Source of the DNA: a virus
DNA: 41,024 nt
Virus genome (UHGV): UHGV-0070243
Direction: 5' to 3' (one strand)
The translations under genes were made by a program, and so were the position numbers. Of the stretch, positions 7,001-21,767 are shown in pieces. The number at the start of each line of letters is the position of its first letter. The first letter of the stretch is position 1. Below the pieces are notes generated by a model. That model was not told where the DNA came from. It made no database searches and saw only the letters and a list, made by a program, of their open reading frames with translations.

Positions 7001-7160
7001 TATAACCGGTATCCAGAACCAATTCTGTTACGTTCCCGTTCAGGTCAGACACCTGAACAACCAGGTCTGATTTTCTGAAAATTCGAAAAGTATACGGAAA
7101 CGATGTCGTAACGCCGTTACCTGTGTATTCGTTGTGGTCAACTTCGGTTGAGACCGTCAT
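4041..7160 (-). CDS. tail fibre/tailspike (1039 aa): T7 gp17-like N-terminal virion-binding domain, Asp-box beta-propeller, C-terminal intramolecular chaperone (S74-like) domain; candidate endosialidase-type depolymerase
   Basis: N-terminus EYTGNGVTTSFPYTF...VVQV resembles the T7 tail-fibre N-domain (memory); two Asp-boxes SGDDGKTW and SSDLGTSW; C-terminal region LDNVNALGGPGNRFSTVYLGS...RWGVRPDLLFYIEAAWQRRE resembles the auto-cleaving chaperone of endosialidases and long tail fibres. Confidence 0.8.
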   Translation of the reverse strand: MTVSTEVDHNEYTGNGVTTSFPYTFRIFRKSDLVVQVSDLNGNVTELVLDTGYTVTGAGTYSGGSVVLPSPLATGWRITIDRVLDVVQETDLRNQGKFFPEVHEDAFDYLTMLIQQCFGWFRRALMKPSLLAKYYDAKQNKISNLADPSLEQDAVNNRSMRNYVDAAIAGVVGGFGWFIQYGSGAVYRTFQDKMRDAISPKDFGAVGDGINDDSTAISACLEASSPGYKIDGLGLTFKVSTLPDVSRFKNARFLFERIPGQPLFYASEDFIQGELFKITDTPWYNAWTQDKTFVYDNVIYAPFMAGDRHGVNNLHVAWVRSGDDGKTWTTPEWLTDLHENYPTVNYHCMSMGVVRNRLFAVIETRTVSGNKLQVAELWDRPMSRSLRVYGGITKAANQQVAYIRITDHGLFAGDFVNFSNSGVTGVTGNMTVTTVIDKNTFTVTTQNTQDVDQNNEGRYWSFGTSFHSSPWRKTSLGTIPSFVDGSTPVTEIHSFATISDNSFAVGYHNGDIGPRELGILYFSDAFGSPGSFVRRRIPAEYEANASEPCVKYYDGILYLTTRGTLSTQPGSSLHRSSDLGTSWNSLRFPNNVHHSNLPFAKVGDELIIFGSERAFGEWEGGEPDNRYAGNYPRTFMTRVNVNEWSLDNVEWVNVTDQIYQGGIVNSAVGVGSVCIKDNWLYYIFGGEDFLNPWSIGDNNRKYPYVHDGHPADLYCFRVKIKQEEFVSRDFVYGATPNRTLPTFMSTSGVRTVPVPVDFTDDVAVQSLTVHAGTSGQVRAEVKLEGNYAIIAKKVPSDDVTAQRLIVSGGETTSSADGAMITLHGSGSSTPRRAVYNALEHLFENGDVKPYLDNVNALGGPGNRFSTVYLGSNPVVTSDGTLKTEPVSPDEALLDAWGDVRYIAYKWLNAVAIKGEEGARIHHGVIAQQLRDVLISHGLMEEESTTCRYAFLCYDDYPAVYDDVITGQREMPLTDNDGSIIVDEDDNPVMVMEDIIERVEITPAGSRWGVRPDLLFYIEAAWQRREMDKIKERIQSLEER

Positions 7161-7264
7161 GTTAAATCTCCAGATAGTCGCAGCACCCGTTGCGCCGCAT
7201 ATCTGGTTATTCTATTACCTGAAAAACCACATATGGATAGAAAGACTGTGAATACGAATAGATA

Positions 7265-7279
7265 TTACCTTTCAGGTAA
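7265..7279. promoter_or_regulatory. operator-like palindrome TTACCtttcaGGTAA
   Basis: perfect inverted repeat TTACC-N5-GGTAA; same 16-mer ATTACCTTTCAGGTAA recurs at 27563-27578. Confidence 0.6.
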
Positions 7280-7318
7280 TTTGCAAAACGTGCTGGATAG
7301 CAAACAAATTATTTGCTA

Positions 7319-7334
7319 CTGTATAAATATACAG
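7319..7334. promoter_or_regulatory. LexA (SOS) box CTGTATAAATATACAG
   Basis: matches CTGT-N8-ACAG with AT-rich centre (TACTGTATAAATATACAGTT); 8 nt upstream of ATG at 7342. Confidence 0.7.
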
Positions 7335-7341
7335 TTATTGC

Positions 7342-7614
7342 ATGGAGAAGATTAAGATGCAGCAGTATCACTATCCACTGGAAGACGGATTTACCGAAAG
7401 GATTCACACGCCGGGAGGCGTCAGGTCACTGGTGGAGGGATCGCACTTGATGAAATTACTCCGGGATCTCGATAAGGATGGATTTAATGTCGATGGCCCA
7501 CTTGCCGAACTGACTGCACTGATTAACTACGTCACCAGCTCGCAGATGTCTATGCAGGATCTGCAAACACATCTCGACTATTGTGCCGAACAATTACGAA
7601 AACAAACCAGATAA
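7342..7614 (+). CDS. stand-alone antirepressor C-terminal (ANT/KilA-C-like) domain protein (90 aa), probably SOS-inducible
   Basis: aligns by eye with the shared C-terminal domain of both antirepressors (PL..G...P.GV..L.E.S.LM.LL..L..DG..V.G..AELT...Y....D.QTH..Y); LexA box immediately upstream. Confidence 0.55.
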   Translation: MEKIKMQQYHYPLEDGFTERIHTPGGVRSLVEGSHLMKLLRDLDKDGFNVDGPLAELTALINYVTSSQMSMQDLQTHLDYCAEQLRKQTR

Positions 7615-7645
7615 GGTTTGAAATTACCAAATGGAGTGCTTATAT

Positions 7646-7660
7646 TTACCTTTGCGGTAA
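7646..7660. promoter_or_regulatory. operator-like palindrome TTACCtttgcGGTAA (extended ATTTACC...GGTAAAT)
   Basis: perfect TTACC-N5-GGTAA in the structured leader upstream of the Bro-N antirepressor. Confidence 0.6.
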
Positions 7661-7926
7661 ATTTACATCGCACTCCTCTTGTGCCATAGTAATCGGGCAC
7701 TGGCAAAATCCAGTGCCGGGATTGGCGTCCCGGGTTACTACAGAGGCACATATGCCGCATAAGCGGTTTTTTTATGTGTAAAGCGCACCTATTCTATGGT
7801 GGGCTGTGTGGGGGCACCGAAAGGTGCGCCGGGTCCTTTGTAGCCGGTTACGCCAACCCTGCACAGTTCACCACCAACCGATTGGCGTCGGTAGTGGTGA
7901 TTAACCTAACTACAAAGGTGATCACT

Positions 7927-8613
7927 ATGACTGCTAACGTAACCCCATCTGTTTTTCATTTTGAATCAGAAGCAACCATTCGAGCCATTGTTATTGATGG
8001 AAATCCTTGGTTTGTTGCCAAAGACGTTATTAAAGCTCTTCAACTGACAAACCCCACTATGTCAATAAAATCTCTTGATGATGATGAAAGGGCTAAATTT
8101 AACTTAGGCCGTCAAGGCGAAACCAATATTATCAACGAGTCAGGCCTCTACACACTGATCCTCCGCTGCCGCGACGCAGTGACACCAGGCACTATCCCCT
8201 ACCGCTTTCGTAAATGGGTTACAGGTGAGGTTCTTCCTCAGATCCGCCGCACCGGAAGTTACATTAAAAACTCGCTCCCGCAGGAAGAACGCATAAAGAT
8301 GGTTGCCGACCAGGTAGCCAACGCCACAGCATCAGCAGTGATGCAGGCAATGAAGATAGAGAACAAAACCTACAGTGCCCCGCTGAAGCCCGGCTACCGC
8401 AGTCTGATTCATTCGCCGTCGGGTGTTCTCGGCCTGACGGAGCACTCACTGCTGATGAATCTGCTGAACCAGTTACAGGAAGACGGGCATGACGTATCGG
8501 GCGCGGCGGCGGAGCTGACCACCATGTTCTGCTACATCGTCGGTGTGAGCAAATGCCTGCGTGATATCCAGACGCACGCGGAGTACATCAACGACAAGGC
8601 TGGGTTCTTCTGA
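7927..8613 (+). CDS. antirepressor, Bro-N domain + ANT/KilA-C C-terminal domain (228 aa)
   Basis: Bro-N signature FHFESEATIRAIVIDGNPWFVAKDVIKAL...ESGLYTLILRCRDA...RFRKWVTGEVLPQIRRTGSY; RBS AAGGTGA; ORF 7774..8613 trimmed to ATG 7927. Confidence 0.8.
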   Translation: MTANVTPSVFHFESEATIRAIVIDGNPWFVAKDVIKALQLTNPTMSIKSLDDDERAKFNLGRQGETNIINESGLYTLILRCRDAVTPGTIPYRFRKWVTGEVLPQIRRTGSYIKNSLPQEERIKMVADQVANATASAVMQAMKIENKTYSAPLKPGYRSLIHSPSGVLGLTEHSLLMNLLNQLQEDGHDVSGAAAELTTMFCYIVGVSKCLRDIQTHAEYINDKAGFF

Positions 8614-8638
8614 CGGGCGGCGGCACAGGGATGTGCTT
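8380..8638 (+). repeat. left arm of about 258-bp inverted repeat (about 93 percent identical to 10099..10356 on the other strand)
   Basis: encodes the near-identical last 78 aa of both antirepressors plus about 25 bp of 3' flank (shared GGCACAGGGATGTGC). Confidence 0.8.
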
Positions 8639-8679
8639 CTGACATAATCATTTGCGGTGTGATGTAGATTCACGTAAGA

Positions 8680-8694
8680 TTACCTTAAAGGTAA
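8680..8694. promoter_or_regulatory. operator-like palindrome TTACCttaaaGGTAA
   Basis: perfect TTACC-N5-GGTAA 26 nt upstream of the 8721 start. Confidence 0.6.
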
Positions 8695-8720
8695 ACCATG
8701 GGTTTACATGAGGAGGAGAT

Positions 8721-8930
8721 ATGGGATTTTGGTTCGCTCGTACAAAAACGAGGGATAATGCACCCAGCCCTCAGGCAAAAAATGCAGAAGTTCCGGCGTC
8801 AGCGCAGGTTAACAAGCGTGGTGGAGTATATATCTCATCACAGCAAATTTCTGAGCTTCCTGAGGTTAAGGAGATGCGTCGTCTCGCTGCTGCAATTGTT
8901 AAACAGGATCTTGCCACTGTAAGGAAATAG
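8721..8930 (+). CDS. hypothetical small soluble protein (69 aa), first gene of two-gene cargo operon
   Basis: strong SD GAGGAGGAG 4 nt before ATG; stop TAG overlaps GTG start of next gene by 1 nt; preferred over alternative-frame ORF 8698..8922. Confidence 0.5.
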   Translation: MGFWFARTKTRDNAPSPQAKNAEVPASAQVNKRGGVYISSQQISELPEVKEMRRLAAAIVKQDLATVRK

Positions 8931-9796
8931 TGTTGTTAGCTCTTCTAATTATCCCCATTCTGGTTAGTGGTTATATTATGATAACCGCTAACCAGTATCA
9001 TTATTTCCGTTTATACCGACATGAAGGCCAGCTTCTTTATATGAAAGTAGCTGCATTAGGTACATATTGCCTTGTTGCATCAGTAATAATTGCAGCCGCT
9101 ATAAAATATAAATGGCCTGATTTTCACCTAGTTCACGATATGGTGGAAACTTTTAATGTAACATCAAAACCAGAAACAGATAGAATTTACATGTGGCTGC
9201 TTCTTCTCTCAGCCACATCCATTTGCTTCTCTTTGTGTTATGTGTCTGTTGTGTGGGTGAAAGATTTTCTTCTTGGTTGTTTTTATAAACGTGATATTTA
9301 CGAGCAAAAAACAGAGGCAATGAAGGCCAGAGTACTGCGAAAAACTTACTCGCAAGGTTCTTTAGACTTACTATTGCTTGATGCTATTGAATCGGATCCT
9401 AAACGACCAATGTTGATTACTTTATCATCAAACAAAGTGTATGTTGGAATAATAAATGGTTCTGGTGAACCAACGGAAAATCAGGGTCCGCATCAGCACA
9501 TATCTTTTGTTCCTTTAATGTCAGGATACAGGAACAAAGAAAACTTATCTGTCACATTCACTAATGCTTATCCAGGAGAAATACAGGTCAAGCGGACTGC
9601 AGCAATAAGAGGAATTAGCAGAAAGAAAGTGCCAGGACTTGAGATCATGGTGTCTATTGACGAAATAAGTTATATATCATGGTTTGATTTTGAAGTATAT
9701 AAAGCAACAAATAACAAAGTAGAATCCAGGGGGCACGTTATTCGTGTTACCAAAAATGGAAGAAATATATATCAAAGAAATAGCAAAAAAGAATAG
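8930..9796 (+). CDS. hypothetical membrane protein (288 aa): three or four N-terminal TM helices plus about 160-aa soluble C-terminal domain
   Basis: GTG start with RBS AAGGAAA; visibly AT-rich codon usage unlike flanking phage genes; followed by terminator. Confidence 0.6.
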   Translation: MLLALLIIPILVSGYIMITANQYHYFRLYRHEGQLLYMKVAALGTYCLVASVIIAAAIKYKWPDFHLVHDMVETFNVTSKPETDRIYMWLLLLSATSICFSLCYVSVVWVKDFLLGCFYKRDIYEQKTEAMKARVLRKTYSQGSLDLLLLDAIESDPKRPMLITLSSNKVYVGIINGSGEPTENQGPHQHISFVPLMSGYRNKENLSVTFTNAYPGEIQVKRTAAIRGISRKKVPGLEIMVSIDEISYISWFDFEVYKATNNKVESRGHVIRVTKNGRNIYQRNSKKE

Positions 9797-9817
9797 CCCG
9801 CGCTGCGGGCTTTTTTG
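9795..9817 (+). terminator. rho-independent terminator after membrane-protein gene
   Basis: AGCCCGC-gct-GCGGGCT followed by TTTTTTG. Confidence 0.7.
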
Positions 9818-9888
9818 TGGACGAAACAAAAGCCAGTGCTACACTCATTGACGCCACATTGAGGTGGCTTATAGATGGAAATTTCACA

Positions 9889-10050
9889 ATGAAAAAAGCA
9901 TTTGCTGCACTGTTCGTTTTGTTGTCTCTGGTAGCTTCAACTCAGGCCTTTGCCGGTCGTTGTCAGCACGACAGCGATACCGCCGCTGACGGCTCCCGCT
10001 GCGGTGGGCGTTCTGCGGATTCCCGCCCGGGCGGCGGTGGCATTCGTTAA
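9889..10050 (+). CDS. small secreted Cys-containing peptide (53 aa precursor)
   Basis: signal peptide MKKAFAALFVLLSLVASTQAFA then 31-aa Gly/Arg/Asp-rich region with 2 Cys; ORF 9817..10050 trimmed to ATG 9889; weak RBS. Confidence 0.4.
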   Translation: MKKAFAALFVLLSLVASTQAFAGRCQHDSDTAADGSRCGGRSADSRPGGGGIR

Positions 10051-10055
10051 AAACA

Positions 10056-10073
10056 AGGCCGCGAAAGCGGCCT
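10056..10073 (-). terminator. hairpin AGGCCGC-gaaa-GCGGCCT with U-run on the minus strand; terminator of ant
   Basis: 7-bp GC stem; minus-strand transcript continues into TGTTTTTAA; adjacent palindrome GTGACATGTCAC at 10074-10085. Confidence 0.55.
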
Positions 10074-10098
10074 GTGACATGTCACGATAGTTCCTTTT

Positions 10099-10356
10099 TG
10101 CACATCCCTGTGCCTCCGTTCTGTCAGAAGAACCCTGCCTTGTCATTGATGTACTCTGCGTGAGTCTGGATATCACGCAGGCATTTGCTCACACCAACGA
10201 TGTAGCAGAACATGGTGGTCAGCTCCGCCGCCGCGCCCGATACGTCATGCCCGTCGTCCTGCAACTGATTCAGCAGATTCATCAGCAATGAGTTCTCCGT
10301 CAGGCCGAGAACACCAGACGGCGAGTGAATCAGGCTGCGGTAGCCGGGCTTCAGCG
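10099..10356 (-). repeat. right arm of about 258-bp inverted repeat (partner of 8380..8638)
   Basis: reverse complement of 8380..8638 matches with a handful of substitutions. Confidence 0.8.
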
Positions 10357-11068
10357 GATAACCATAACATTTTGTCTGTGTTTTAATTGCCTCACGAAGC
10401 GCATCTAACATCTTGACTGCCACTTCATCATTCTCTGATGCAGATCCAGCAGGGAGATACTCCCCTTCAAGCGGAACCCGAGCAACAAGAGACAACGCTT
10501 CGGCGAATTGATCTTCATCAATTTCTTTGTACGAACAGCCAAAATGAGATTTCAGTGACGACCACATGGTGATCATCGCCTTAGCCTGTTTTTCTTTTGG
10601 CAGAGACTGACCGCGACTCATGACGAGTTGTTTAATGGCTTCCTGCTGTTCAGTGGTTATTTTACCCGGCAACGCCTTTTTAGCTTTGCGTGGGTTAACC
10701 ACATGGCCTTTAGTCCAGTACTCGTAGAGCACATCGTCACACTCTTCCTGATACTGGATTACCTTGTCGCGGATTTCAGGACGGACTTTGTTAGGGCTGA
10801 TGGTTTGCAACCAGCCAGCAAGTTTGCGAAGTGCCAAACAAATAATCTCACGGCGCTGTTCATCCCCAGGAAGCTGCATTGTGATTTTCACAATGCAGGT
10901 TTTAAACCGCTGCTTCATTTTCGTAAACTGTGAAGCCCAATCCATACCCATTCCCTCAACGATAGGCTTCATTGGTGTGTACGGTTCGCCGTTGTGATTG
11001 ACAACATAAAGTTCTACGCCGTGGAATGGCACGTTGATAGTAGATACCGCTGTTGCTATACTCGTCAT
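10124..11068 (-). CDS. ant: antirepressor Ant-like (314 aa): Ant N-terminal domain + shared ANT/KilA-C C-terminal domain
   Basis: N-terminus VPFHGVELYVVNHNGEPYTPMKPIVEGMGMDW and KVRPEIRDKVIQYQEECDDVLYEYW recalled as P22 Ant-like; downstream of arc-like gene as in P22 immI. Confidence 0.7.
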   Translation of the reverse strand: MTSIATAVSTINVPFHGVELYVVNHNGEPYTPMKPIVEGMGMDWASQFTKMKQRFKTCIVKITMQLPGDEQRREIICLALRKLAGWLQTISPNKVRPEIRDKVIQYQEECDDVLYEYWTKGHVVNPRKAKKALPGKITTEQQEAIKQLVMSRGQSLPKEKQAKAMITMWSSLKSHFGCSYKEIDEDQFAEALSLVARVPLEGEYLPAGSASENDEVAVKMLDALREAIKTQTKCYGYPLKPGYRSLIHSPSGVLGLTENSLLMNLLNQLQDDGHDVSGAAAELTTMFCYIVGVSKCLRDIQTHAEYINDKAGFF

Positions 11069-11140
11069 GTCGTTAATTCCTATACGTAGTTTTACGATAC
11101 TGAAGCCCTGACGGTCTGGCCACCGTTGGGCTTCGCTGTT

Positions 11141-11308
11141 TTATGCCACGCTATTCTTCTCACCAGTGAGTCCATACACTTTCCTCAGCTGATAGATAAT
11201 CTCTGTATTGAACTTTCGGCATTCTTTTTCGCCATTTCTTTCAATAGCTAACTTCACATCGTCCGGAAAACGAACTCGTCGTTGACACATCTCTTTTGCT
11301 TTTTGCAT
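11141..11308 (-). CDS. arc: Arc-like ribbon-helix-helix repressor (55 aa)
   Basis: MQKAKEMCQRRVRFPDDVKLAIERNGEKECRKFNTEIIYQLRKV resembles P22 Arc (beta-strand then NSEIYQR helix); RBS AAGGAG 9 nt upstream; ORF 11141..11344 trimmed. Confidence 0.65.
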   Translation of the reverse strand: MQKAKEMCQRRVRFPDDVKLAIERNGEKECRKFNTEIIYQLRKVYGLTGEKNSVA

Positions 11309-11428
11309 TTCATATCTCCTTAGCCCCACCGTGGGGCAAAACAATTGTCACACCGTGCGTCATTGATGTCAAGCACACGGTGAGGCATACTTCAATCATT
11401 GCAAGTAACTCAATATTTGGTGAAGAAC

Positions 11429-11860
11429 ATGAGCAGAGAAGATCCACAACTAAGGATCAGACTTCCCGTTGAAGTAAAAGAAAAAATAGAAATTTCTGCA
11501 AAAGCCAATAAGCGATCAATGAACGCTGAAATAGTACAACGTCTTGACACCAGCTTTCTGAAAGATATTCATGAAGATGACGTAATTTCTGCTTATGAAG
11601 CAAAAATTATTGCAAACAATGCACGGCATGAAATATCAAATATTATTTTCAAAAGAACCTTTAATGAAATTAATAAGAAAATAACACTTGGACATACAAG
11701 TTTTTATATAAACCTTAATGACCTTGAACTGGAATCACTTGCAGATAATGATTACCAGATCATCTTTGAAAAAACATTTAATAAGCTCAATGAACTAGGT
11801 TACATCATCTGTGAAAACTCATGGGATGCAGATGGTTTTGGAATTGAAATACCTGAATAG
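11429..11860 (+). CDS. mnt: Mnt-like ribbon-helix-helix repressor with about 60-aa C-terminal extension (143 aa)
   Basis: MSREDPQLRIRLPVEVKEKIEISAKANKRSMNAEIVQRL resembles P22 Mnt N-terminus (DDPHFNFRMPMEV...ANGRSMNSELLQIV); divergent from arc; AT-rich. Confidence 0.65.
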   Translation: MSREDPQLRIRLPVEVKEKIEISAKANKRSMNAEIVQRLDTSFLKDIHEDDVISAYEAKIIANNARHEISNIIFKRTFNEINKKITLGHTSFYINLNDLELESLADNDYQIIFEKTFNKLNELGYIICENSWDADGFGIEIPE

Positions 11861-11950
11861 GAAGAACAAAAGGCGTGTACATATTACACGTCTTTAATAC
11901 AATTGAAAAACGCCACATTACTGATGTATGTTACAACAAGGAGCGATATT

Positions 11951-12514
11951 TTGAAAACCATATCTATATTAAAGGTTGCATTAGGCGTCGCTATTATTTT
12001 GACTCTCTCAATATTGTTTTATTTTTACCACAAAAAAACAGCTATTGCTCTTGATGGTCACGCGGCAAACTCATTTTTCTCAGAGTACATAGTGCCGCTA
12101 TCAGGAAGCGGTATAACAAATAAATATACTGACTATGACATCAAATATGGAATTGATGATGGGGAGACTATTGTATTACATGTAATCATTAAAAACCTAA
12201 TGACAGTAAATAAAAATACAGACTTCAACGATAAAAATACAATACATCACAACAACAGCAAAACATTAATTTCTTATAGTAGCAACATCTATACGGATAA
12301 ATACCTAAAATACATCTCAGAAGATACAATAAAAGCAACCAGCGAAAAGTTAAAAAACATATATTGTGCATCCGGCAGTTTTCACAAATTATCGCCGCAA
12401 GAGCGTTTATTCTACGAAGCAAGAAAACAACGTAAGTCAATAATATTACATTATTATGCTGATTCAGGGGAGTCACTCATATTTAATATTGGGGTTTCCC
12501 CTGAATCATGCTAA
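11951..12514 (+). CDS. hypothetical membrane-anchored protein (about 188 aa) in the position P22 sieA occupies; candidate superinfection-exclusion/abortive-infection protein
   Basis: TTG start with perfect SD AAGGAG 7 nt upstream (alternative ATG 11924 lacks an RBS); one TM helix ISILKVALGVAIILTLSILFYFY; very AT-rich; sits between mnt and the core-protein operon. Confidence 0.5.
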   Translation: MKTISILKVALGVAIILTLSILFYFYHKKTAIALDGHAANSFFSEYIVPLSGSGITNKYTDYDIKYGIDDGETIVLHVIIKNLMTVNKNTDFNDKNTIHHNNSKTLISYSSNIYTDKYLKYISEDTIKATSEKLKNIYCASGSFHKLSPQERLFYEARKQRKSIILHYYADSGESLIFNIGVSPESC

Positions 12515-12525
12515 AGGCGTTTAAC

Positions 12526-15500
12526 TCACCGCATCACCGGATCCACCTGGTTTATTAGTGGCGCAATCCAGAACAGGTTATTGCCTGGTATCAGGGTTCG
12601 GACATTATGCACAATACGATCACCGGCATCACCATTCAACACTCCTGCGGTCACATCAATGATGCTATCCGCAAGACCAAATGACGGTCCGAATAGAGAT
12701 CCTACGAATCCACGACTGGCATACCTAGACTGTGTGCCAGTGCCAAATAAAGCCCCCAGCCCAACAGCACCACCAGTAGCCTTTTCAGCCATGTTGTTAT
12801 ATTCCATCAATGGCCCAAGAATACCGGATCTATCTATACCCTCAAGCACCAGCTTCTCTGGTGACCAGTCAACATTTTTCCCTTTCGATGCTTCTTTAAG
12901 CGCATAGACCAGTGAGCCAAGAGCAATCTGAAATGCAGTGCCATAATAAAATTGCGCAGTTCCTTCCTGTAGCCCACCAAGTAGCGCACGGTTGTATGAA
13001 GCCGTTGTGAATGATTTAAACTGAAATATCGTTCGCCCCATTGGAGTACTCGCCCATAAAGGTGTGTCACCAATACCGGGGGTGATGATAGTGTTATTAA
13101 CGTCTTTCAGAACCGCTGACTGGAATACTCCGGCAACGTACTGATCGTCCCATTTATCAAAGTTACCAATGTGCCATCCATCAATTACCTCACCATGTTT
13201 CTCGAACTCACTGCGAATACGCGCAGCCATATTGTCGTTGATACCGAGTTTTGCCATGCGACGTGCAGAAAACGCACCAGACAAAATACCGTCTGACGTG
13301 AGCATTCCGTTCATGGATTTGTTTATGTCATTAAATCGATCCATGAGTGTCAGCTTGCCGAAGGCATCAGTAATTCGCTCCATTCCTGCTTCGACTGCTG
13401 TTGTCCTGGAAGAACTGTCAACAAGATCACCAATTGCACGAGAACGTGAATGTAGTACAGTTTCCAATCCAATCCCCATCTTCAACATCTCTTCTTTGCT
13501 GGCCTTAAATGCCGGTGATTGGGATATCTGAGAAGCATAGCCTTTCATGGTGTTACGGAAACCATTAACCATAACCCCTCTGGCCAGATCTGGAATAGCT
13601 GATACTGTCATTCCACCGAGTTTGGTCGTGAAGTTCACATCCCGCAGAAAAGCGCCAGCACGAACAAAAAACGAAGACGGGTCATCAGGCATACCATATG
13701 TACCAACAAGACGATCGCGTAATGCTGTTATGTCTCTGAGATCATTTGCTCTTGATTTTGAAAGTCTGGACTGTTCTTTCCGTAATTCCTTTTCGTACTT
13801 TCGCATTAATGAATCGAGTTTACCCTGAGGAACAACTTCACCATTGCTCTCATAACGTGCTTTCAGATTTGCCACACTTTCGTCATATTTCGCCTTTATT
13901 TTTTCAGGCACTTCCCGTAACAGACTGTCATATTCGTCTTCAATTAATTGCAGACGCTCAGCCATAGTTCGTTTGCCAAATGTTCTCGTCAACTCAATTT
14001 CTGCTGCCGCTTCACGGATATGACGTTGCAGCACGTAATTCACATCACTTTCGAGATAATCCCTGATAAGACTATCAGGCACATTTAATGTTCTTTCTTT
14101 CGTACTACCTGCGGCTTTTACAGAAAATACGCTGACAAAATCCTGTGGAACCTTAGCACCAGTAATTTTATTAATTACGATATCCGCTGCAATTTCAGCA
14201 TCCTCAGGATCCAGTGTTTTATTGCCTCTCGACCACCAGTCAACCAAAATACGTCGAAATTTATCGCGTTCACTGATTATTTTTCCAACTTTATATATAC
14301 GTGGGAAATAGCTTGCCTGACCTAATGCTTTCAGTTCTTCATCTGGCGGCAATAAACCAAGCTTTTGCATTTCAACTTTCACCCGATTTAATACAGTTCG
14401 CATCGCCTGCGCCGTTTCCTGAACAACAGGATTAGCATGAACATCACCGCTTCGCATCGCATTCCCAACCTGCTGACGAAATGAATCAAAACTCATGTCA
14501 CCACCATCAGCTTTATACTTTGCGTATGCCTGTTTATTTCCGACAACAACTGCAGCTTCTTCACGCTGCCATCCACGTGTACGGGTTTCTACAGCTATCG
14601 GTGTTTCAATCCCCCTTTCATTTCCTTTAAGGGTGAAATTATTTTCGGCTAACTCCAGCGTTGTTTTTCGCACTGTCTTTGACGGAGACTCCATTAACCT
14701 TGTCAAAGGAGTAAGATAGCTCCCTGCTTTCCATGCAGCCTTTCCAACCACCCCACCAGAAACAGGGGTTAAATCATCCAGAGTCGCTGTATCAATTTTC
14801 ATAGCACCAACACTACCACCATCGGAAAGCGAAGCGGCAGCCCTGTCAGTCGCTGATGTAATGCTCATATTATCAAGAGCATCAGCAACCTCACGTGTGG
14901 CTGCAGCCCGGACGGATGGCGAAAGCGCAACACCAGCACTGGCAAACACGCCGCTCATCATCGCACCCGCTGCAACGTGAGCGGCACTTTCACCCCATGA
15001 GCGTGTTATTTGCTGATTATTCAGTACAACCTCGCTTAATGCAGTACCGGCAGCACCAATCGCAATCTGTGAGCCAATACGCGCCAGTGCCCCTCCTTGA
15101 GCACCGGGGATAAACATTGACGCAACAGTAACCGGATCCATTCCCGCAGCAATACTGGCAAGGGTTCCAACTACGCCAGCATCAGACAATAAACGTCTGT
15201 CTTCATTTTCATCATCTATCTGCTGCTTAATCCACGCCGTTTCCTCTGGCGATCGGGAATCTGCAAATTTCGCCCCCCAGTATTCATAACCGTGCAACTC
15301 ATTTTTATCAGCATATGGGTTATAACCTTCGACCGGTTCAAACTGTCTGGCTGGGCGGAAAAAACCAGCCAGAATATTGTTCTGTCGCATTGCAGCCCCC
15401 CATACGGAAGGCTCAGGTGGCAATGGCTCAGGATTAGCCCCTTCCGGAAGGGCAACATCAAACCCAGTTTGTTCCGGCAAAACATTACCTGACGGGATCA

Positions 15501-15540
15501 GTCCGTTATTAAGATCTTCAGCTTGTGCATAAACTGGCAT
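12526..15540 (-). CDS. internal virion/ejection protein (1004 aa), T7 gp16-like by position and size
   Basis: last large gene of core operon before the immI block; Gly/Ala-rich stretches; start overlaps upstream stop. Confidence 0.6.
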   Translation of the reverse strand: MPVYAQAEDLNNGLIPSGNVLPEQTGFDVALPEGANPEPLPPEPSVWGAAMRQNNILAGFFRPARQFEPVEGYNPYADKNELHGYEYWGAKFADSRSPEETAWIKQQIDDENEDRRLLSDAGVVGTLASIAAGMDPVTVASMFIPGAQGGALARIGSQIAIGAAGTALSEVVLNNQQITRSWGESAAHVAAGAMMSGVFASAGVALSPSVRAAATREVADALDNMSITSATDRAAASLSDGGSVGAMKIDTATLDDLTPVSGGVVGKAAWKAGSYLTPLTRLMESPSKTVRKTTLELAENNFTLKGNERGIETPIAVETRTRGWQREEAAVVVGNKQAYAKYKADGGDMSFDSFRQQVGNAMRSGDVHANPVVQETAQAMRTVLNRVKVEMQKLGLLPPDEELKALGQASYFPRIYKVGKIISERDKFRRILVDWWSRGNKTLDPEDAEIAADIVINKITGAKVPQDFVSVFSVKAAGSTKERTLNVPDSLIRDYLESDVNYVLQRHIREAAAEIELTRTFGKRTMAERLQLIEDEYDSLLREVPEKIKAKYDESVANLKARYESNGEVVPQGKLDSLMRKYEKELRKEQSRLSKSRANDLRDITALRDRLVGTYGMPDDPSSFFVRAGAFLRDVNFTTKLGGMTVSAIPDLARGVMVNGFRNTMKGYASQISQSPAFKASKEEMLKMGIGLETVLHSRSRAIGDLVDSSSRTTAVEAGMERITDAFGKLTLMDRFNDINKSMNGMLTSDGILSGAFSARRMAKLGINDNMAARIRSEFEKHGEVIDGWHIGNFDKWDDQYVAGVFQSAVLKDVNNTIITPGIGDTPLWASTPMGRTIFQFKSFTTASYNRALLGGLQEGTAQFYYGTAFQIALGSLVYALKEASKGKNVDWSPEKLVLEGIDRSGILGPLMEYNNMAEKATGGAVGLGALFGTGTQSRYASRGFVGSLFGPSFGLADSIIDVTAGVLNGDAGDRIVHNVRTLIPGNNLFWIAPLINQVDPVMR

Positions 15541-18257
15541 TATTTAGATCCCCACGAAAAGTAATCTTTAAATTTGTCCATACGTTCGTTATGCAGGCGC
15601 TGATACTGCTCATCCAGAGCGCGATGCTTGTCTTTGAAGTTTCGTATAGCCTGTCCACGCATAATTTCTTCCTGCTCGTACTGCTCCCGTTCCTGCTGCA
15701 TTTTCTTATAAGGTTCCCAATCTGCTAGTGATGGTTCCCAACGCATAGGACGCCCATGTTTGTTATAAAACGGCTGGACCCGATCGATGCCATTTTCATC
15801 CTTAGTTCTTACCATAATGGCGTAATCACCATTACGGGGTGTTAACACGTCAGGGGTTATGAATAATTCTCCATTAATACGACTCTCAGGGGTTTTTGTC
15901 TCAACTACAGGAGCATTACCTGACGTGATCCCAAGCAACGTCGGACTGGTTGTTATAATCTCTTTGCGCTCACCGTACATCAGCCGTTCTTTTTCAGCTT
16001 TCCACTGCGCCGCCTGCCAGCCTGACGGCCCATATTGATAAAGCGCCTCCGGTGCATATTTCATAAACTGTGCATCTCCGTTAACCTCGCTGATACTCCA
16101 GGTGCGGGCTATCTGCTGGTTGGTCATTTGCTTCGCTACGTCAGCGTTACCACCAGCAACGCGGTAGTTAATGTCATACAGCGTCTGATAGTCATTACGG
16201 AATCTAGCTGCTTCCGGCGTCTGGTCATCCGCAGAAGGATCCCAACGGAACCACTGCGCCATATTGCTGACAGCAGAATTCATCGCCTTGCTGCGATCAT
16301 TTTTGTACTCTTTTGAACTCTGCGTTGATGCCAATTGAGCTTTAAGAGCATCGGTCTGGTTGTATGTCAGGTTCTGCGCCTGCTCGATAGCCGCATCAGC
16401 AGACATGCCAGAATCAGTTAGTTGCTTAACAGTCAGATAAAAACCCTGCATATCCTTCGGCATATTTCCAATAGATGCATTGTCTGTTTCATATAACCGA
16501 CTAAACAGCTCCGCTGCATTTTTAACCACTTCCTGATTACTGGATCGGGATACTGCTGAAAGCTGCGTGATGACCTGCGAAGGCATTATGCCAGTCTGAG
16601 CCACAAGCCGAACAACCCCATCATGAGTGGAGGCATCATTAATACGAAAGTTCTGCGCCATTTCTGTGTAATCAGCAGCTTTCTGCATTGACTTGTTGCT
16701 TGGGTCTAATTTTTCACCTATTGTCAGCGCCTCATTGAATCTGCGTGAATCCCGTTGCGCCTGAATTGCTTCATTTGATCTCTGAAGCAATGCAGACAAT
16801 TTTCCGTAAGCATCGAGTTTTAACGCATAGTGAGGATCGTTAACCTCAGGCTTCACTTTCTGCATTTCTTCTTGCTGCTGAGAAGGAGGCAAATACTGAA
16901 TTGCCTGGAATATTCTCGCGTTATCAATCGCTATATCCAGTTGATTGATTATTTTATCTGCGTTTTTTCCATACCCCCTGATGATGGTCTCCTGAGCCGG
17001 TATATAATCTGGAACCTCACCGTTATATAGCTGGGCCATGGTGTTATTAATAGCTGGCTCAAGCTGTTCTAATATTAACTTCCTTTGCTTTTCTATCTGA
17101 CTATTAGCAAGGTTATCTATTTGATAAATAGTCAGCGGATCCATTCCAGTTTTATTTTTTCTATATCGGGAAAGCCACCCTTGTGTTTCTGATGGAAGAT
17201 TTCGGATAAATTCTTCTTCTGATATTTCACCTTTACGTGGATCACCGACTTTGGCGATCAGTTTATCCACGTTACCCATCCCCCAGTTATATGCTGCTCC
17301 GGTCAATATTTCTGAGCCGTACTTACCATACAGTTGATTTACATAGTCACTGGCAAGCATTTCATGCTGTTGTTCGTCCGTAGGGTTGTATTCAACGCCA
17401 CGCTTGGCCGCCAGTTCTTTCCCTGTGCCCGGCATTAACTGGTATTTCCCCTGGGCCCTCTCTCCAGAAGATGTTTTCGGTCCTTCAAGAATACTACCAT
17501 CAGGATTAAAATGACGATCACCTGATTCAACAAGGCGTATGGCACGCATGTCCATGCCTACAGAATCATTTTTCTGAAACAGACCATTTAGCCATCCTTC
17601 CGGATTAGCAGCGGCATAATTCTTCGCCCGCATTTCTGTGGCACTGCGATCATCACTTTCTATTTCTTCCAGAATGCGTTCTTGTGACCATCCCCTGGCA
17701 GCTCCATATCTGGCAATGGCTACCATTCTGGAATTTCTGGCTAAAGTGGCAGTTTGCGGGTCATTCCAGGCATCCGCTTCATTTTGTATCCATAATTTTC
17801 TCGTTGCCTGATATTGCTCATCTTCATAGGCATTTGTCTGCCCTATCTCATGTCTGAGAACTCCAGTACTGAACTGAATTTTCTGTGTTCTGGCTTGTTG
17901 CAAAAACATATTTCTTGCTGCTTCATCAGTCAATGAAGCAGCTATTTCTTCCACATCCTGATCAAATCCAGATATGTACTCTTGCCCCTTACCAATCGCA
18001 TTTTTGCCTTGTTGTGCATAAAAACCGGTTTGAGGGTTATAAAGACGTTCATTGCTGCGCTGATTAAGCTGAAGGATGGCATCCTGAGACAATGCAACAT
18101 TCGCTTTCTGCCTGGCTTCACCATATGCCACCGCATACTGATCTGCGACATTCGCCAGCACCTGACCTGCTTGAGGAACATCGAAGGTCTGAAAACCACC
18201 GGTTTGCACACCACGACTTTGCACCTGGCGTCCGGATGTAGTAGGAACAACAGGCAT
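15540..18257 (-). CDS. internal virion protein with lytic transglycosylase (SLT) domain (905 aa)
   Basis: SLT-like motifs ESGDRHFNPDGS...GKYQLMPGTG...AYNWGMGNV; gp15-like position. Confidence 0.7.
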   Translation of the reverse strand: MPVVPTTSGRQVQSRGVQTGGFQTFDVPQAGQVLANVADQYAVAYGEARQKANVALSQDAILQLNQRSNERLYNPQTGFYAQQGKNAIGKGQEYISGFDQDVEEIAASLTDEAARNMFLQQARTQKIQFSTGVLRHEIGQTNAYEDEQYQATRKLWIQNEADAWNDPQTATLARNSRMVAIARYGAARGWSQERILEEIESDDRSATEMRAKNYAAANPEGWLNGLFQKNDSVGMDMRAIRLVESGDRHFNPDGSILEGPKTSSGERAQGKYQLMPGTGKELAAKRGVEYNPTDEQQHEMLASDYVNQLYGKYGSEILTGAAYNWGMGNVDKLIAKVGDPRKGEISEEEFIRNLPSETQGWLSRYRKNKTGMDPLTIYQIDNLANSQIEKQRKLILEQLEPAINNTMAQLYNGEVPDYIPAQETIIRGYGKNADKIINQLDIAIDNARIFQAIQYLPPSQQQEEMQKVKPEVNDPHYALKLDAYGKLSALLQRSNEAIQAQRDSRRFNEALTIGEKLDPSNKSMQKAADYTEMAQNFRINDASTHDGVVRLVAQTGIMPSQVITQLSAVSRSSNQEVVKNAAELFSRLYETDNASIGNMPKDMQGFYLTVKQLTDSGMSADAAIEQAQNLTYNQTDALKAQLASTQSSKEYKNDRSKAMNSAVSNMAQWFRWDPSADDQTPEAARFRNDYQTLYDINYRVAGGNADVAKQMTNQQIARTWSISEVNGDAQFMKYAPEALYQYGPSGWQAAQWKAEKERLMYGERKEIITTSPTLLGITSGNAPVVETKTPESRINGELFITPDVLTPRNGDYAIMVRTKDENGIDRVQPFYNKHGRPMRWEPSLADWEPYKKMQQEREQYEQEEIMRGQAIRNFKDKHRALDEQYQRLHNERMDKFKDYFSWGSK

Positions 18258-18832: not shown

Positions 18833-19296
18833 TATTTTCTCTCCATGTGAAATCTGTGGAAATTAAGACCAAGAGCACCATAAGGCGCGGCTTCTTCAAG
18901 CCTGAATCCAAGCCAGTGCAGCCATGCTTTGGCAACATGGTTTCGCTCGTCGACATAGTTTTCCAGGCGCGGATAAACTGCCAGCATCTGCTGCAATACA
19001 GGGCGGCAGTGGCGAAGAAATGTCTTCTGATATTTTTCGATACGGCTGGTTCCGACCAGCCAGGGCGTACCATTGCCACCGATCATTGACGCCGGAGATA
19101 CGCCAAACATGGTTACCAGTTCTCCGTTCGCAAATCCTGACCAGGCCATAGTCGCAGTGCGAAGACCAACGCGCAGCGCATCTTCGGTAGTCATCAGCGA
19201 TACCGCATACAGTTCGTCAATATCAGCCTGACGAACATCCGGCAAAATCATCTGAAGATGCTCTTCGGTAGCGGGAATAATTTGAACATCGATCAT
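18832..19296 (-). CDS. virion protein (154 aa), gp13-like by position
   Basis: position between tubular-B-like and core proteins; start overlaps upstream stop (ATGA). Confidence 0.4.
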   Translation of the reverse strand: MIDVQIIPATEEHLQMILPDVRQADIDELYAVSLMTTEDALRVGLRTATMAWSGFANGELVTMFGVSPASMIGGNGTPWLVGTSRIEKYQKTFLRHCRPVLQQMLAVYPRLENYVDERNHVAKAWLHWLGFRLEEAAPYGALGLNFHRFHMERK

Positions 19297-21767
19297 CAGA
19301 ATCCCCCAACAGTAAGGCGAGGAATAACGGCAAGAACAGACAGCGGCAACGGGTCAAGCTGACGGATTTTTACACGCCCGTTTTTGCCCCAGTTACTGTC
19401 CAGTTTCACTTCTACTTTTCCGGTAGCATCATCAACAGGATCATCGTAGAACTCGAATTCACGCTGTGGATATTCGTACCATTTACCGCCGGGCGTAGTC
19501 GCCCAGATGCCGCGACTGGCATTCACAACCAGAGTAACGGAGGGGATCACCTGTTTTTTGTCCAGCAGCGTTTCCTGTCCGTTAATGTTGATATCCAGTG
19601 TTTCGAATTCAGCAGTTATTGGCAGGCCGATGTGCACTACAGCCCCCGGAGATTCCAGCGTGACGGCACCTCCGGAAACCACTTTCTGTGGTTCCACGTT
19701 CGCATCAGAGAGAATGTTTACGGTCTGGCCTTCAAGATGAGACAGGCCTCCAAATGTCCGGCGCGCCATCTGCCAGTTCGTGGTGGCCACATTCCTGAGG
19801 GATGGCGGGACGTTCCTGTTAGCACGAACCACTACAGCGGTATTGCTGGTTACAGAAATAATGTCGCAACGTAATTCTTTTGACACTTCATCGCCAGTAT
19901 CAGGAGCAGTTCCGGTATAAGGGAACTGTAGTTGCGCACCGACATCACTACTGGTGAAGTACGCACCACCAGAAACACTGATTGTATATTCCGCGCGGTA
20001 ATCCCATTCGCCAGAACCACCAGTGATGGTCATCGTTCTGTCAGACGTATTTCTTCCATCATAGCTAAGGCCAGAATCAACAAAGAAAGCATCTTCATCG
20101 CTGGTAAATAAACGGCTGGACAGTCTCTCGATGTATCTCACTGTTTGCCCGTTAACGGTTCTGTTAACGACGAAATACACCGCATCTTCATTGCCTTCGC
20201 TGATACTGCATGTGCTTTCATATTTTCCGGTACTGGATTGTGGTGCCCATGCAAAAACCTGCTGATCACGCAAATAGGTCATCACCAGTAATTTACCGTC
20301 ATCACGAATGCAGAAGGCACTGGAGTAAGGGACAATCGAGAAGCACCAGTCAACAATGCTGTGCTTCTGAAAAAGATGATTGGCAAGGATAGTAAGGTCG
20401 TTCCCCTGATAGCCGTCAACATCGAATGAGTAGGCCAGATCACGGACAACACTGCCTTTCTCCTGGACGAACAGAGCAATATTCGCCACGGCAATTGGTG
20501 GGACATTGCTCGAGCCATTTGATCCCTGAGAGCTGAATGCAAATGATGATGGGGTTAACACTTTGTTCTGGTCGCCGGTGATGACGTACTCACCTCCGGA
20601 AGTCAGCGCCACCAGAGAACCAACATCAATCAGGTGGCGGATCTCATTAACCTGACGCCCGGCATAGGTGTAGATAATTCTGTCGTCATCCTGCGTAGGA
20701 TTGCTTTTGCCAAAATCCTTATAATCCCCGGTACGGCTGGCCCAGATAGTCTGAGGGAACGCAGTCGATGCGGCGAAGTAAAGACGCTGTTGATAATAAA
20801 CAACAGTGCCAGGATAACCATTAACACTGTTCCAGGCATATTTAGCCCATTTATAGCTGGCATTATCCTCGCCAACGACCTGCGAAGGGATATAGGAAAT
20901 CACCTCAGCAGTTGCAGTAGTGCCATTTACAGCAGTTATACTGGCAATGCCAAAACCACTGTGCAGATACTCCCACTCAATGCCAGTATCATCATCACCG
21001 GATCCGCCCCAGCCATCCCATGATGTGCCTTCTGTATGCGAAGGGCGCAAAGTACCTGTTTTGCCTGCTGTAACGGCGCGATAGTAGTTACTGTCTGCAC
21101 GGCGAATATCGCCAATCGACGTACTCTTACTGGTTTCCCATACCGGCACAGAATCCACTGCAGGCTGTTCCAGATAGAACAATTTGCCTACCTGCTCCGC
21201 GCCAAAAATAGAGGCGCTTGCCGTTAACGTAATTGTCCCGGTGCTGGCGCTGGCATAAACCGTCACTGACTCGTCAATATTGATATCTTCAAATGGCCCG
21301 TTCTTCGTTACCACATCAACCAGTTGCCAGTTGTCATGCGCATAGCGACGCAACTCTTTCGGCGGGTATGCCGGATGAACCAGCGTAAGCACGTCGGCGC
21401 TTTGCGTGAATTTAATTCGGAACAGATCGGCTTCAGTATATGGCGTGGCAATTTCATAAATAACATTGCTGCTGTTCAGCACCAACGCACCATCTTTGAT
21501 AACGCGCATGTACTGGTGTCCGAACTCCAGAGCATAGGTCTGAACCGTCGAGAACTGGAACGGGATCAGGCGGCATTTCCGATTTGGGTATTTGGCGGCA
21601 CCGACAAAACGCGTACCAGGTCGATTCTCAACGCCGCCATACTGCCGCACGATAAAGTTATCGCACTTGCGCAATGCCACCTGGTACTTCGCCATGTCAA
21701 TACGCCCGTACAACGACGGTCCAATCTCACCACCGGCAAAGCTGGGCTGGATCCAACTGATAGCCAT
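19296..21767 (-). CDS. tail tubular protein B / nozzle-like (823 aa)
   Basis: size and position match T7 gp12; N-terminal ISWIQPSFAGGEIGPSLYGRID resembles the gp12 N-terminal pattern (memory). Confidence 0.6.
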   Translation of the reverse strand: MAISWIQPSFAGGEIGPSLYGRIDMAKYQVALRKCDNFIVRQYGGVENRPGTRFVGAAKYPNRKCRLIPFQFSTVQTYALEFGHQYMRVIKDGALVLNSSNVIYEIATPYTEADLFRIKFTQSADVLTLVHPAYPPKELRRYAHDNWQLVDVVTKNGPFEDINIDESVTVYASASTGTITLTASASIFGAEQVGKLFYLEQPAVDSVPVWETSKSTSIGDIRRADSNYYRAVTAGKTGTLRPSHTEGTSWDGWGGSGDDDTGIEWEYLHSGFGIASITAVNGTTATAEVISYIPSQVVGEDNASYKWAKYAWNSVNGYPGTVVYYQQRLYFAASTAFPQTIWASRTGDYKDFGKSNPTQDDDRIIYTYAGRQVNEIRHLIDVGSLVALTSGGEYVITGDQNKVLTPSSFAFSSQGSNGSSNVPPIAVANIALFVQEKGSVVRDLAYSFDVDGYQGNDLTILANHLFQKHSIVDWCFSIVPYSSAFCIRDDGKLLVMTYLRDQQVFAWAPQSSTGKYESTCSISEGNEDAVYFVVNRTVNGQTVRYIERLSSRLFTSDEDAFFVDSGLSYDGRNTSDRTMTITGGSGEWDYRAEYTISVSGGAYFTSSDVGAQLQFPYTGTAPDTGDEVSKELRCDIISVTSNTAVVVRANRNVPPSLRNVATTNWQMARRTFGGLSHLEGQTVNILSDANVEPQKVVSGGAVTLESPGAVVHIGLPITAEFETLDININGQETLLDKKQVIPSVTLVVNASRGIWATTPGGKWYEYPQREFEFYDDPVDDATGKVEVKLDSNWGKNGRVKIRQLDPLPLSVLAVIPRLTVGGF

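Follow-up and report, generated by a model that had tools for sequence, protein, structure and literature searches.

A 53-codon gene of an Escherichia coli prophage has the structure of a moron and encodes a putative exported peptide with a two-cysteine module conserved across phyla

What does a 53-codon open reading frame (ORF) standing between two hairpins in the immunity region of a prophage encode, and what could its product do for the phage or its host? The question is raised by positions 9889 to 10050 of the UHGV virus genome UHGV-0070243, whose 41,024 nucleotides were analyzed as a whole (the window) and belong to an E. coli prophage of the TL-2011b/phiV10/epsilon15 (Uetakevirus) type. 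A preliminary description made from the letters alone had proposed a small secreted peptide of uncertain coding status. The ORF is a genuine gene whose mature peptide is under strong purifying selection, and by structural criteria the gene and its flanking elements are a self-contained phage moron. For the product we favor, with a probability of roughly 0.55, a periplasmic peptide that would be exported by Sec, cleaved by signal peptidase I and closed into a disulfide loop, and that would bind an envelope ligand as a lysogenic-conversion factor.

The ORF comprises 53 codons followed by TAA, with the ATG at 9889 and the stop codon at 10048–10050 on the plus strand. Its pre-peptide consists of MKKAFAALFVLLSLVASTQAFA followed directly by GRCQHDSDTAADGSRCGGRSADSRPGGGGIR, the boundary between the two being the predicted cleavage point, and this exact sequence agrees with the earlier account of a 53-residue precursor with a Sec-type leader ending in AFA and a 31-residue mature part carrying two cysteines. 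These are Cys25 and Cys38, 12 residues apart, in a mature 31-mer that is hydrophilic (grand average of hydropathy, GRAVY, −1.19) with a net charge of about +1. The G+C content of the mature part is 0.71; the upstream cargo gene, which encodes 288 residues, has 0.36 and the window as a whole 0.475. The complete product matched PHROG 14503 (E = 2.3e−40, residues 1–53 against profile positions 1–53 of 53), which is labeled “membrane associated protein”, while the RefSeq labels for WP_000708858.1 are “hypothetical protein” or “transmembrane anchored protein”. At least 1000 contigs encode an identical protein, and the ORF was found in 463 of 5426 complete E. coli genomes (about 8.5%). Homologues of the protein occur in Shigella, Citrobacter, Klebsiella, Cronobacter, Franconibacter, Salmonella, Pectobacterium, and Dickeya, as well as in prophages of Enterobacter. 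The gene is annotated in databases, yet it is an uncharacterized member of the moron-encoded accessory factors. Two overlapping candidates were dropped: a 77-residue GTG-initiated ORF (9817..10050, PHROG 3117), because all homologues begin at the MKK ATG and conservation does not extend upstream of it, and an antisense ORF at 9937..10176 on the minus strand, which was taken as a by-product of the G+C-rich frame.

The proportions of synonymous (pS) and nonsynonymous (pN) differences were 0.71 and 0.11 among 14 enterobacterial lineages, and 0.81 and 0.26 among 56 loci of all phyla. Pairwise differences amounted to 56%–66% at third codon positions versus 10%–31% at positions 1 and 2. The invariant Ser36 is encoded by both TCN and AGY codons, and the invariant Arg41 by both CGN and AGR codons. 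The reading frame, the start ATG AAA/AAG AAA/AAG and the position of the stop were kept in every lineage; in the alignment of enterobacterial homologues the leader drifts in sequence but remains hydrophobic, and residues 25–49 are nearly invariant. Since the other loci had been fished with peptide patterns, three further E. coli alleles were chosen by nucleotide identity alone (95%–97.5%, no peptide criterion). These three alleles showed 17 differences, 16 of which were silent third-position changes, and the remaining one was the substitution F21S in the leader, which keeps the A-x-A site. This codon signature, together with the PHROG 14503 match and the count in complete genomes, removed the doubt about coding status raised in the preliminary description, and the ORF, whose conservation in related prophages had been left there as a point to be checked, proved to be strongly conserved.

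A pattern scan with one genome per species returned 57 loci. Outside the Enterobacterales, these lay in Tolumonas, Rhizobiales (Mesorhizobium, Devosia, Methylobacterium, Rhizobium, Bradyrhizobium, and Agrobacterium), cyanobacteria (Dolichospermum, Nostoc, and others), Vibrio, Bacteriovorax, and a metagenome-assembled genome of the Polyangiaceae. Nearly all of the 57 loci carry an ORF of about 50 codons consisting of a leader, the core C-x4-D-[TR]-A-[AS]-D-G-S-R-C-G-x-R-[SA]-[AS]-x2-R-P-G-G, zero to four further residues, and a stop. An exhaustive profile search of 1.84 billion representatives gave 367 clusters (50% identity) at E ≤ 1e−3. In the alignment of 56 sequences C25, C38, and R41 were invariant, and Asp30, Asp34, and Ser36 were nearly so. 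At loci L017–L021 (Mesorhizobium, Devosia, and Methylobacterium), the mature region is near-identical to the enterobacterial phage peptide, for example CQHDYDTASDGSRCGDRSADSRPGG, with synonymous sites saturated; this near-identity reflects either extreme constraint or an old inter-class transfer.

The same core also occurs in longer architectures. In one, the leader and module are followed by “RNPDTDW”, a transmembrane (TM) helix and a cytoplasmic domain of about 150 residues; in another, by a Pro-rich linker and a C-terminal domain without a known family. Others contain two or three tandem modules, or bacterial SH3 (SH3b) domains followed by the four-Cys variant CPCPYNxxxNGSRCGGRSAYSRPGGxxPLCY. 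The only recognizable partners among 92 longer proteins were SH3_3/SH3_4 (three proteins) and PG_binding_1 and PG_binding_2 (two proteins each). Pfam, NCBIfam, and PADLOC scans of the peptide, its mature part and the CPCPY-type relatives yielded nothing significant, and a sequence search of the PDB with the profile and with a 67-residue relative found no match. The core motif defines a cross-phylum mini-domain that is missing from current libraries.

A secretory signal is expected to have a basic n-region, a hydrophobic h-region of 7–15 residues, and small residues at −3 and −1. The leader fits these criteria, with the basic MKK, an uncharged core of 14 residues, and A-F-A at positions −3 to −1 followed by Gly23. 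The same features were surveyed in 138 family members carrying the module near the N-terminus. A small-residue (AxA-type) site lies zero to five residues ahead of the first Cys in 136 of them; Ala occupies position −1 in 124 members and A, S, or V position −3 in 134, and in 117 the gap between cleavage site and first Cys is exactly two residues. The median uncharged run is 15 residues long, and only 9% of members have one of at least 18. The canonical signal peptide claimed beforehand is therefore supported by features kept family-wide in 136 of 138 members even though the leader sequence diverges. Processing as a lipoprotein by signal peptidase II was rejected, since there is no lipobox of the form L-[AS]-[GA]-C with Cys at +1: the sequence reads AFAGRC, and two residues separate site and Cys in 117 of 136 cases. 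From the leader pattern we infer cleavage by signal peptidase I after Ala22 and Sec export to the periplasm as a soluble peptide.

If the leader instead remained uncleaved as a signal anchor, the product would be a type II inner-membrane peptide with 30 periplasmic residues, perhaps acting on a sensor or transporter as MgrB does. We consider this unlikely. The names given by NCBI/UniProt and by PHROG 14503 point in this direction, as do a family branch in which the module is followed by a true TM helix and a helix at residues 2–15 in an AlphaFold2 (AF2) model; however, the uncharged run is only about 14–15 residues long, the Ala at −1, the A/S/V at −3 and the fixed two-residue gap to Cys fit a cleavage site, and the leader sequence is free to drift. 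The leader pattern is that of a cleavable signal peptidase I substrate and differs from that of a signal anchor; the label “transmembrane anchored protein” in the databases is therefore probably mistaken, likely an artefact of TM predictors.

A moron is a small autonomous unit with its own promoter and terminator that is inserted between backbone genes (PMC3594210). BLAST of positions 7001–12500 of the window against 85 prophage loci carrying the gene located a homology block over the ORF that starts at 9786–9811 in 76 loci and ends at 10075–10098 in 64, and the conserved unit measures about 290 bp (9795–10086). The cargo upstream of it differs between prophages: TL-2011b carries the YafO toxin, others have a DUF2335 protein, and the prophage studied here has the 288-residue PHROG-3630 protein. 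The downstream gene is likewise variable, and phiV10 lacks the 53-residue gene. In other Enterobacterales the gene sits after an Rz-like spanin (L004) or upstream of the small terminase subunit (L005). Further slots are after a Q-like antiterminator (L009), beside a CI-type repressor (L015, Tolumonas), and beside an internal virion protein (L006). A TAnnnT element, a short hairpin, a YTAYAMA box, a weak Shine-Dalgarno (SD) sequence, and a post-stop hairpin travel with the gene. The unit thus shows the discrete insertion of a moron and a terminator of its own, the U-tract of which is found here on the minus strand only. Variable flanks, presence or absence between relatives, and classical slots are the anatomy and distribution of a moron, so that the earlier suggestion of a lysogenic-conversion candidate gains support. 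The placement “inside the cargo cassette” was half right, since the variable cargo lies upstream and the small gene is a separate constant unit.

The features of the unit are compiled in Table 1. In the candidate promoter, the extended −10 element comprises TG at 9837–9838 and TACACT at 9840–9845, with a predicted start at about 9851–9853. A TAnnnT sequence (TACACT, TACAAT, TACGCT, or TATGAT, of which TACAAT is the Klebsiella type) is found at equal distance 5′ of the hairpin in most enterobacterial lineages. An alternative promoter, TTGACG (9848–9853) and TATAGA (9870–9875) with a 16-nt spacer, would give a near-leaderless mRNA and was ranked lower because its −10 lacks the final T and its −35 is not conserved in Klebsiella-type cassettes. 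The 5′ stem-loop starts 7–8 nt past the TAnnnT element, and the hairpin lies 17–26 nt ahead of the ATG in nearly all lineages, with stems that vary by lineage (GCCGC/GCGGC, GCCGTC/GATGGC, GGCTATC/GATAGCC, and TTGCC/GGCAA). It belonged to the minimum free energy structure in 12 of 13 folds; the z-scores were modest. When the stem was scored across the alignment, 91% of cells were paired versus 24%–63% with the partners slid, and there were 13 double-sided changes versus 4.2 ± 1.5 in shuffles (0 of 500). Since the folding z-scores are modest and independent changes are few, the hairpin is graded as a likely but unproven element of the 5′ untranslated region.

Pairing of the SD-like GGA was calculated at −3.3 kcal/mol versus −13.5 kcal/mol for a consensus SD, with a spacing of 8 nt, which agrees with the weak ribosome binding site (RBS) described before. 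A weak GG(A/U) element 4–8 nt upstream is present in 15 of 15 lineages, at −2.8 to −6.0 kcal/mol in the 14 others. The box and the GGA loosely recall CsrA-type A(N)GGA sites, and Rfam has no family that matches the arrangement of hairpin, box, and GG(A/U) element (9853–9879). On the downstream side, the hairpin at 10056–10073 has its T-run on the minus strand, with no plus-strand U-tract in the window, and is therefore formally the terminator of the convergent P22-type antirepressor gene ant (10124..11068, minus strand). A GC hairpin follows the stop codon of the small gene directly in 13 of 14 enterobacterial lineages, and in lineages without ant (L004, L005, L012, and L015) the post-stop hairpin has a plus-strand T-run. 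Because this T-run is present where no ant follows, the post-stop hairpin belongs to the small gene too. Of the two flanking terminators described earlier, both hairpins are real, the downstream one with the strand limitation just given. Prophages of Kluyvera, Klebsiella, and Buttiauxella likewise have the palindrome GTGACATGTCAC past the homologous hairpin. It coincides with the commonest downstream homology break (10085–10087) and could be a protein-binding or recombination site.

Table 1. Features of the 53-codon gene and its flanking elements (positions in the window)
Feature	Position	Strand	Details
Intrinsic terminator of the upstream 288-residue gene	9795..9817	+	Stem 9795–9811 (7 bp, 6 GC), then TTTTTT; bounds the conserved unit upstream
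Candidate sigma-70 promoter	9818..9845	+	−35-like TGGACG 9818–9823, 16-nt spacer, extended −10 TGcTACACT
Small 5′ stem-loop	9853..9868	+	GCCAC-attgag-GTGGC; predicted at or near the mRNA 5′ end
YTAYAMA box, then weak SD-like GGA	9869..9879	+	TTATAGA here, CTACACA in most relatives; GGA 9877–9879
Protein-coding gene	9889..10050	+	RefSeq WP_000708858.1, UniProt A0A0A1A7U0, PHROG 14503
Predicted Sec signal peptide, residues 1–22	9889..9954	+	n-region MKK, h-region AFAALFVLLSLVAS, c-region TQAFA
Predicted mature peptide GRCQHDSDTAADGSRCGGRSADSRPGGGGIR	9955..10047	+	31 residues, 5 Arg, 4 Asp, 71% G+C
Conserved module Cys25–Gly49, 25 residues	9961..10035	+	C-x4-D-x-A-x-D-G-S-R-C-G-x-R-[SA]-[AS]-x2-R-P-G-G
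GC-rich hairpin (7 bp)	10056..10073	both	AGGCCGC-gaaa-GCGGCCT; shared terminator of the small gene (+) and convergent ant (−)
Perfect 12-bp palindrome GTGACATGTCAC	10074..10085		At the downstream end of the conserved unit, adjoining the shared terminator

In the mechanism that we favor, the cassette would bring its own weak promoter-like element, 5′ stem-loop, weak RBS with AUG AAA AAA, and GC-hairpin terminator, parts that would permit expression in the lysogen independently of the neighboring immunity genes. The 53-residue product would be exported by Sec and cut after Ala22, as the family-wide conservation of signal features suggests, and the hydrophilic 31-residue peptide would be released into the periplasm, where DsbA may join Cys25 and Cys38 into a small loop. 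A disulfide made by DsbA is the general expectation for periplasmic proteins. The phage peptide would then be a stand-alone copy of an extracytoplasmic module of about 25 residues, which in larger proteins lies beside cell-wall-binding domains or makes up the whole periplasmic portion of single-pass membrane proteins.

Such a module may act as a tiny ligand-binding unit in the cell envelope, its likeliest target being the peptidoglycan itself or else an envelope component or a cation that is bound to it. This reading as a ligand-binding module aimed at a universal envelope component is drawn because the 25 residues are fixed from enteric phages to cyanobacteria, because the module is the sole periplasmic part of some membrane proteins, and because the few known partners are cell-wall-binding domains. 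Together these points suggest peptidoglycan or something bound to it as the ligand, with a cation-binding loop as the main alternative. The pay-off for the prophage would be an altered host envelope, for instance hindrance of a superinfecting phage. In a possible, if doubtful, extension, the 25-residue Cys-loop core would be an ancient undescribed mini-domain for a universal envelope component such as peptidoglycan, and temperate phages of the Enterobacterales would have captured its minimal stand-alone form as a portable moron. The peptide would then “gate” the lysogen's periplasm: it might protect peptidoglycan against the ejection proteins with which superinfecting phages degrade the wall, or inhibit those proteins.

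Several observations weigh against the favored mechanism. On the side of expression, the candidate promoter falls under the promoter-scan threshold with 8 of 12 consensus matches, the SD sequence is weak, and the post-stop hairpin has its T-run on the minus strand here. In the loci retrieved with peptide patterns, the apparent conservation of the patterned residues is inflated, a bias that is offset by the profile search (367 clusters) and the three alleles chosen by nucleotide identity. The link to the cell wall rests on about 5 of 92 fusion proteins, most partners having no known domain. The AF2 model built from 56 sequences shows a compact loop with a β-bridge and short turns at moderate confidence (predicted local distance difference test, pLDDT, 76, with about 80 over residues 31–50), and a structure comparison of this model with the PDB and BFVD found no neighbor. 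All-versus-all BLAST of the flanking ORFs of 57 loci detected no common neighbor outside the phage backbone, and a literature search on the 53-residue gene found nothing published.

A periplasmic metal-binding peptide, in which a cluster of Asp, Ser, His, and Cys would hold Ca2+, Zn2+, or Cu and serve as a cation buffer or sensor and not as a wall binder, is likewise improbable. It draws on the segment D30-x-A-x-D34-G-S-R-C38-G, which resembles the DxDxDGxxCE of Excalibur (PF05901) with the Cys at an equal offset from DG, and on the near-invariance of Asp30, Asp34, and Ser36. In one fusion protein (P0182), an Excalibur-like segment was seen by eye upstream of the module, although Pfam finds no domain in P0182. 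With the cutoff relaxed to E ≤ 10, Pfam still matched the peptide neither to Excalibur nor to another family. A conserved Ala stands in place of the middle Asp of DxDxDG, His27 loses its conservation outside the enterics, and the CPCPY branch has Asn where the module has Asp.

The preliminary description had also raised a bacteriocin-like peptide, and a product of this kind, either a microcin-like toxin or the precursor of a ribosomally synthesized and post-translationally modified peptide (RiPP; bufferin- or HxsA-like) that needs a maturase, is very improbable. The product is small, exported, and Cys-containing, and it gave a weak match to NCBIfam HxsA3 (E = 0.073), but the score of 12.9 bits is far under the cutoff of 65 bits. 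Neither the window nor the 57 other loci hold an exporter, immunity, radical S-adenosylmethionine (rSAM), or multinuclear non-heme iron oxidative enzyme (MNIO) gene near the ORF. The leader is of the Sec and not of the double-glycine type, and the mature part is hydrophilic and ultra-conserved, its near-invariance being the opposite of toxin-type diversification; the bacteriocin-like interpretation thus finds no support. A bufferin-type RiPP (BufA/DUF2282), in which a DUF2282 or BUF_6/12Cys precursor would adjoin an MNIO (DUF692) enzyme, was discarded in view of the missing Pfam match and of the lack of any conserved or enriched neighbor family, and a class II microcin or bacteriocin in view of the Sec-type leader and of neighbors that are antirepressors and cargo without known function. 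A Pfam census of 127 neighbors of 44 non-enterobacterial loci showed no family in more than two loci and none enriched.

Even less probable is an arbitrium-like communication peptide that is secreted, sensed, and used to bias the lysis-lysogeny decision. Two antirepressor modules with antisense RNAs adjoin the gene in an ant/arc/mnt immunity region, and the product is a small secreted peptide; however, its mature sequence is near-identical across phage genera and non-phage chromosomal loci and so lacks lineage specificity, a conserved receptor gene is missing, and the gene occupies lysis, Q, or terminase slots in other phages. A spurious ORF whose conservation stems from an RNA or DNA element (the ant terminator region, a small RNA, or a recombination site), as the weak SD, flanking hairpins, and palindrome might suggest, has a negligible chance of being right, because synonymous sites are saturated while amino acids are fixed, codons of six-fold-degenerate amino acids switch sets, frame, ATG AAA AAA start, and stop are kept in every lineage, and the Rfam scan found no family over 9800–10100.

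The gene lies in an immunity region with features of its own. Rfam placed isrK at 7697–7773, a C4 antisense RNA at 7792–7878, and the c4 a1/b1 target element at 7684–7736, all on the plus strand (7684–7878), where they directly precede the BRO-N antirepressor ORF (7774..8613) and overlap its start; this arrangement amounts to a c4-icd-ant immunity module of the P1/P7 type, carried here by a Uetakevirus-like prophage. A sar antisense RNA (RF00262, 45.2 bits) matched at 11070–11137 on the plus strand, directly 5′ of the P22_AR_N antirepressor gene (10124..11068, minus strand). The prophage therefore has two distinct antirepressor modules, each controlled by an antisense RNA of its own, C4 in one and sar in the other. 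Both antirepressor genes share a C-terminal domain, which accounts for an inverted repeat of 270 nt with 90% complementarity (8345–8614 and 10123–10392). Its arms bracket a 1.5-kb segment with the genes for 69, 288, and 53 residues, and recombination between them could therefore invert this segment.

The cargo slot at 8721–9796 on the plus strand is filled by the 69-residue ORF (PHROG 5739) and the 288-residue protein, which has N-terminal hydrophobic segments (PHROG 3630); neither protein had a Pfam, NCBIfam, or PADLOC match. Other prophages use this slot for the YafO toxin or a DUF2335 protein, so that here it may hold an unrecognized defense or toxin gene. Within the first 70 nt of the 288-residue ORF, the terminator scan flagged a 15-bp stem-loop at 8960–8995 on the plus strand (CTGGTTAGTGGTTAT…ATAACCGCTAACCAG). 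Downstream of an Arc/Mnt-like gene, a 203-residue ORF (11903–12514, plus strand) gave a weak TIR-like (ThsB) match in PADLOC (E = 0.006, 15 bits) and is possibly another defense-type moron. The ejection proteins of this prophage are assigned to three minus-strand ORFs further along the window, 12526..15540, 15540..18257, and 19296..21767.

Phage morons are a main route by which prophages change host surface, virulence, and phage resistance. The 53-residue gene is unusually common, small, and conserved, and its database name is probably misleading. A peptide of 31 residues is easy to make synthetically, so that binding partners, structure, and phage-exclusion or envelope phenotypes are directly accessible. 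If the cell-wall or cation-binding module is confirmed, it would represent a new minimal envelope domain and would assign a function to several hundred unannotated small ORFs.

The periplasmic reading has a precedent in HxsA of the HXS defense, a basic, signal-peptide-bearing periplasmic effector that is tied to peptidoglycan and blocks phage DNA entry; it contains five HxS repeats and a peptidoglycan-binding domain and is matured by HxsB/C/D (PMC13128918). Both would share “periplasmic gatekeeping”, whereas the phage peptide has a single incidental H-D-S, no hxsBCD partner genes, and the sub-cutoff score given above. Excalibur is an extracellular Ca-binding domain with an Asp-rich loop, the motif DxDxDGxxCE, and a Cys spacing of about 30. 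Like it, the module is short, extracytoplasmic, and bracketed by Cys, with an Asp-rich loop ending in DG-x-x-C; unlike it, the module reads D-x-A-x-D-G-x-x-C-G, has a Cys spacing of 12 and an Arg-rich half G-x-R-[SA]-[AS]-x2-R-P-G-G that Excalibur lacks, and gave no hidden Markov model match to it in Pfam at E ≤ 1 or E ≤ 10.

MgrB is a membrane-anchored chromosomal regulator of PhoQ that needs two periplasmic Cys for function. Like MgrB, the phage product is encoded by some 50 codons and begins with a hydrophobic segment, and its two Cys would likewise face the periplasm; in contrast to MgrB, the leader here looks cleavable and the module family spans phyla without PhoQ. The T4 protein Sp (spackle) and other superinfection-exclusion proteins of the envelope are small phage proteins with a Sec signal that act in the periplasm of the infected or lysogenic cell. 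Sp is about three times larger, and no similarity in sequence or fold was detected; the likeness, a small phage protein with a Sec signal and a periplasmic action, is a functional analogy only. Lambda bor, located downstream of Rz, and HK97 gp15 are examples of morons in the Juhala/Hendrix sense, Bor being a lipoprotein and HK97 gp15 an inner-membrane protein. The product described here is unrelated to both and, as known from sequence alone, would be a soluble peptide of 31 residues, whereas the gene shares with them the autonomous insertion, the presence or absence in close relatives, and the classical slots.

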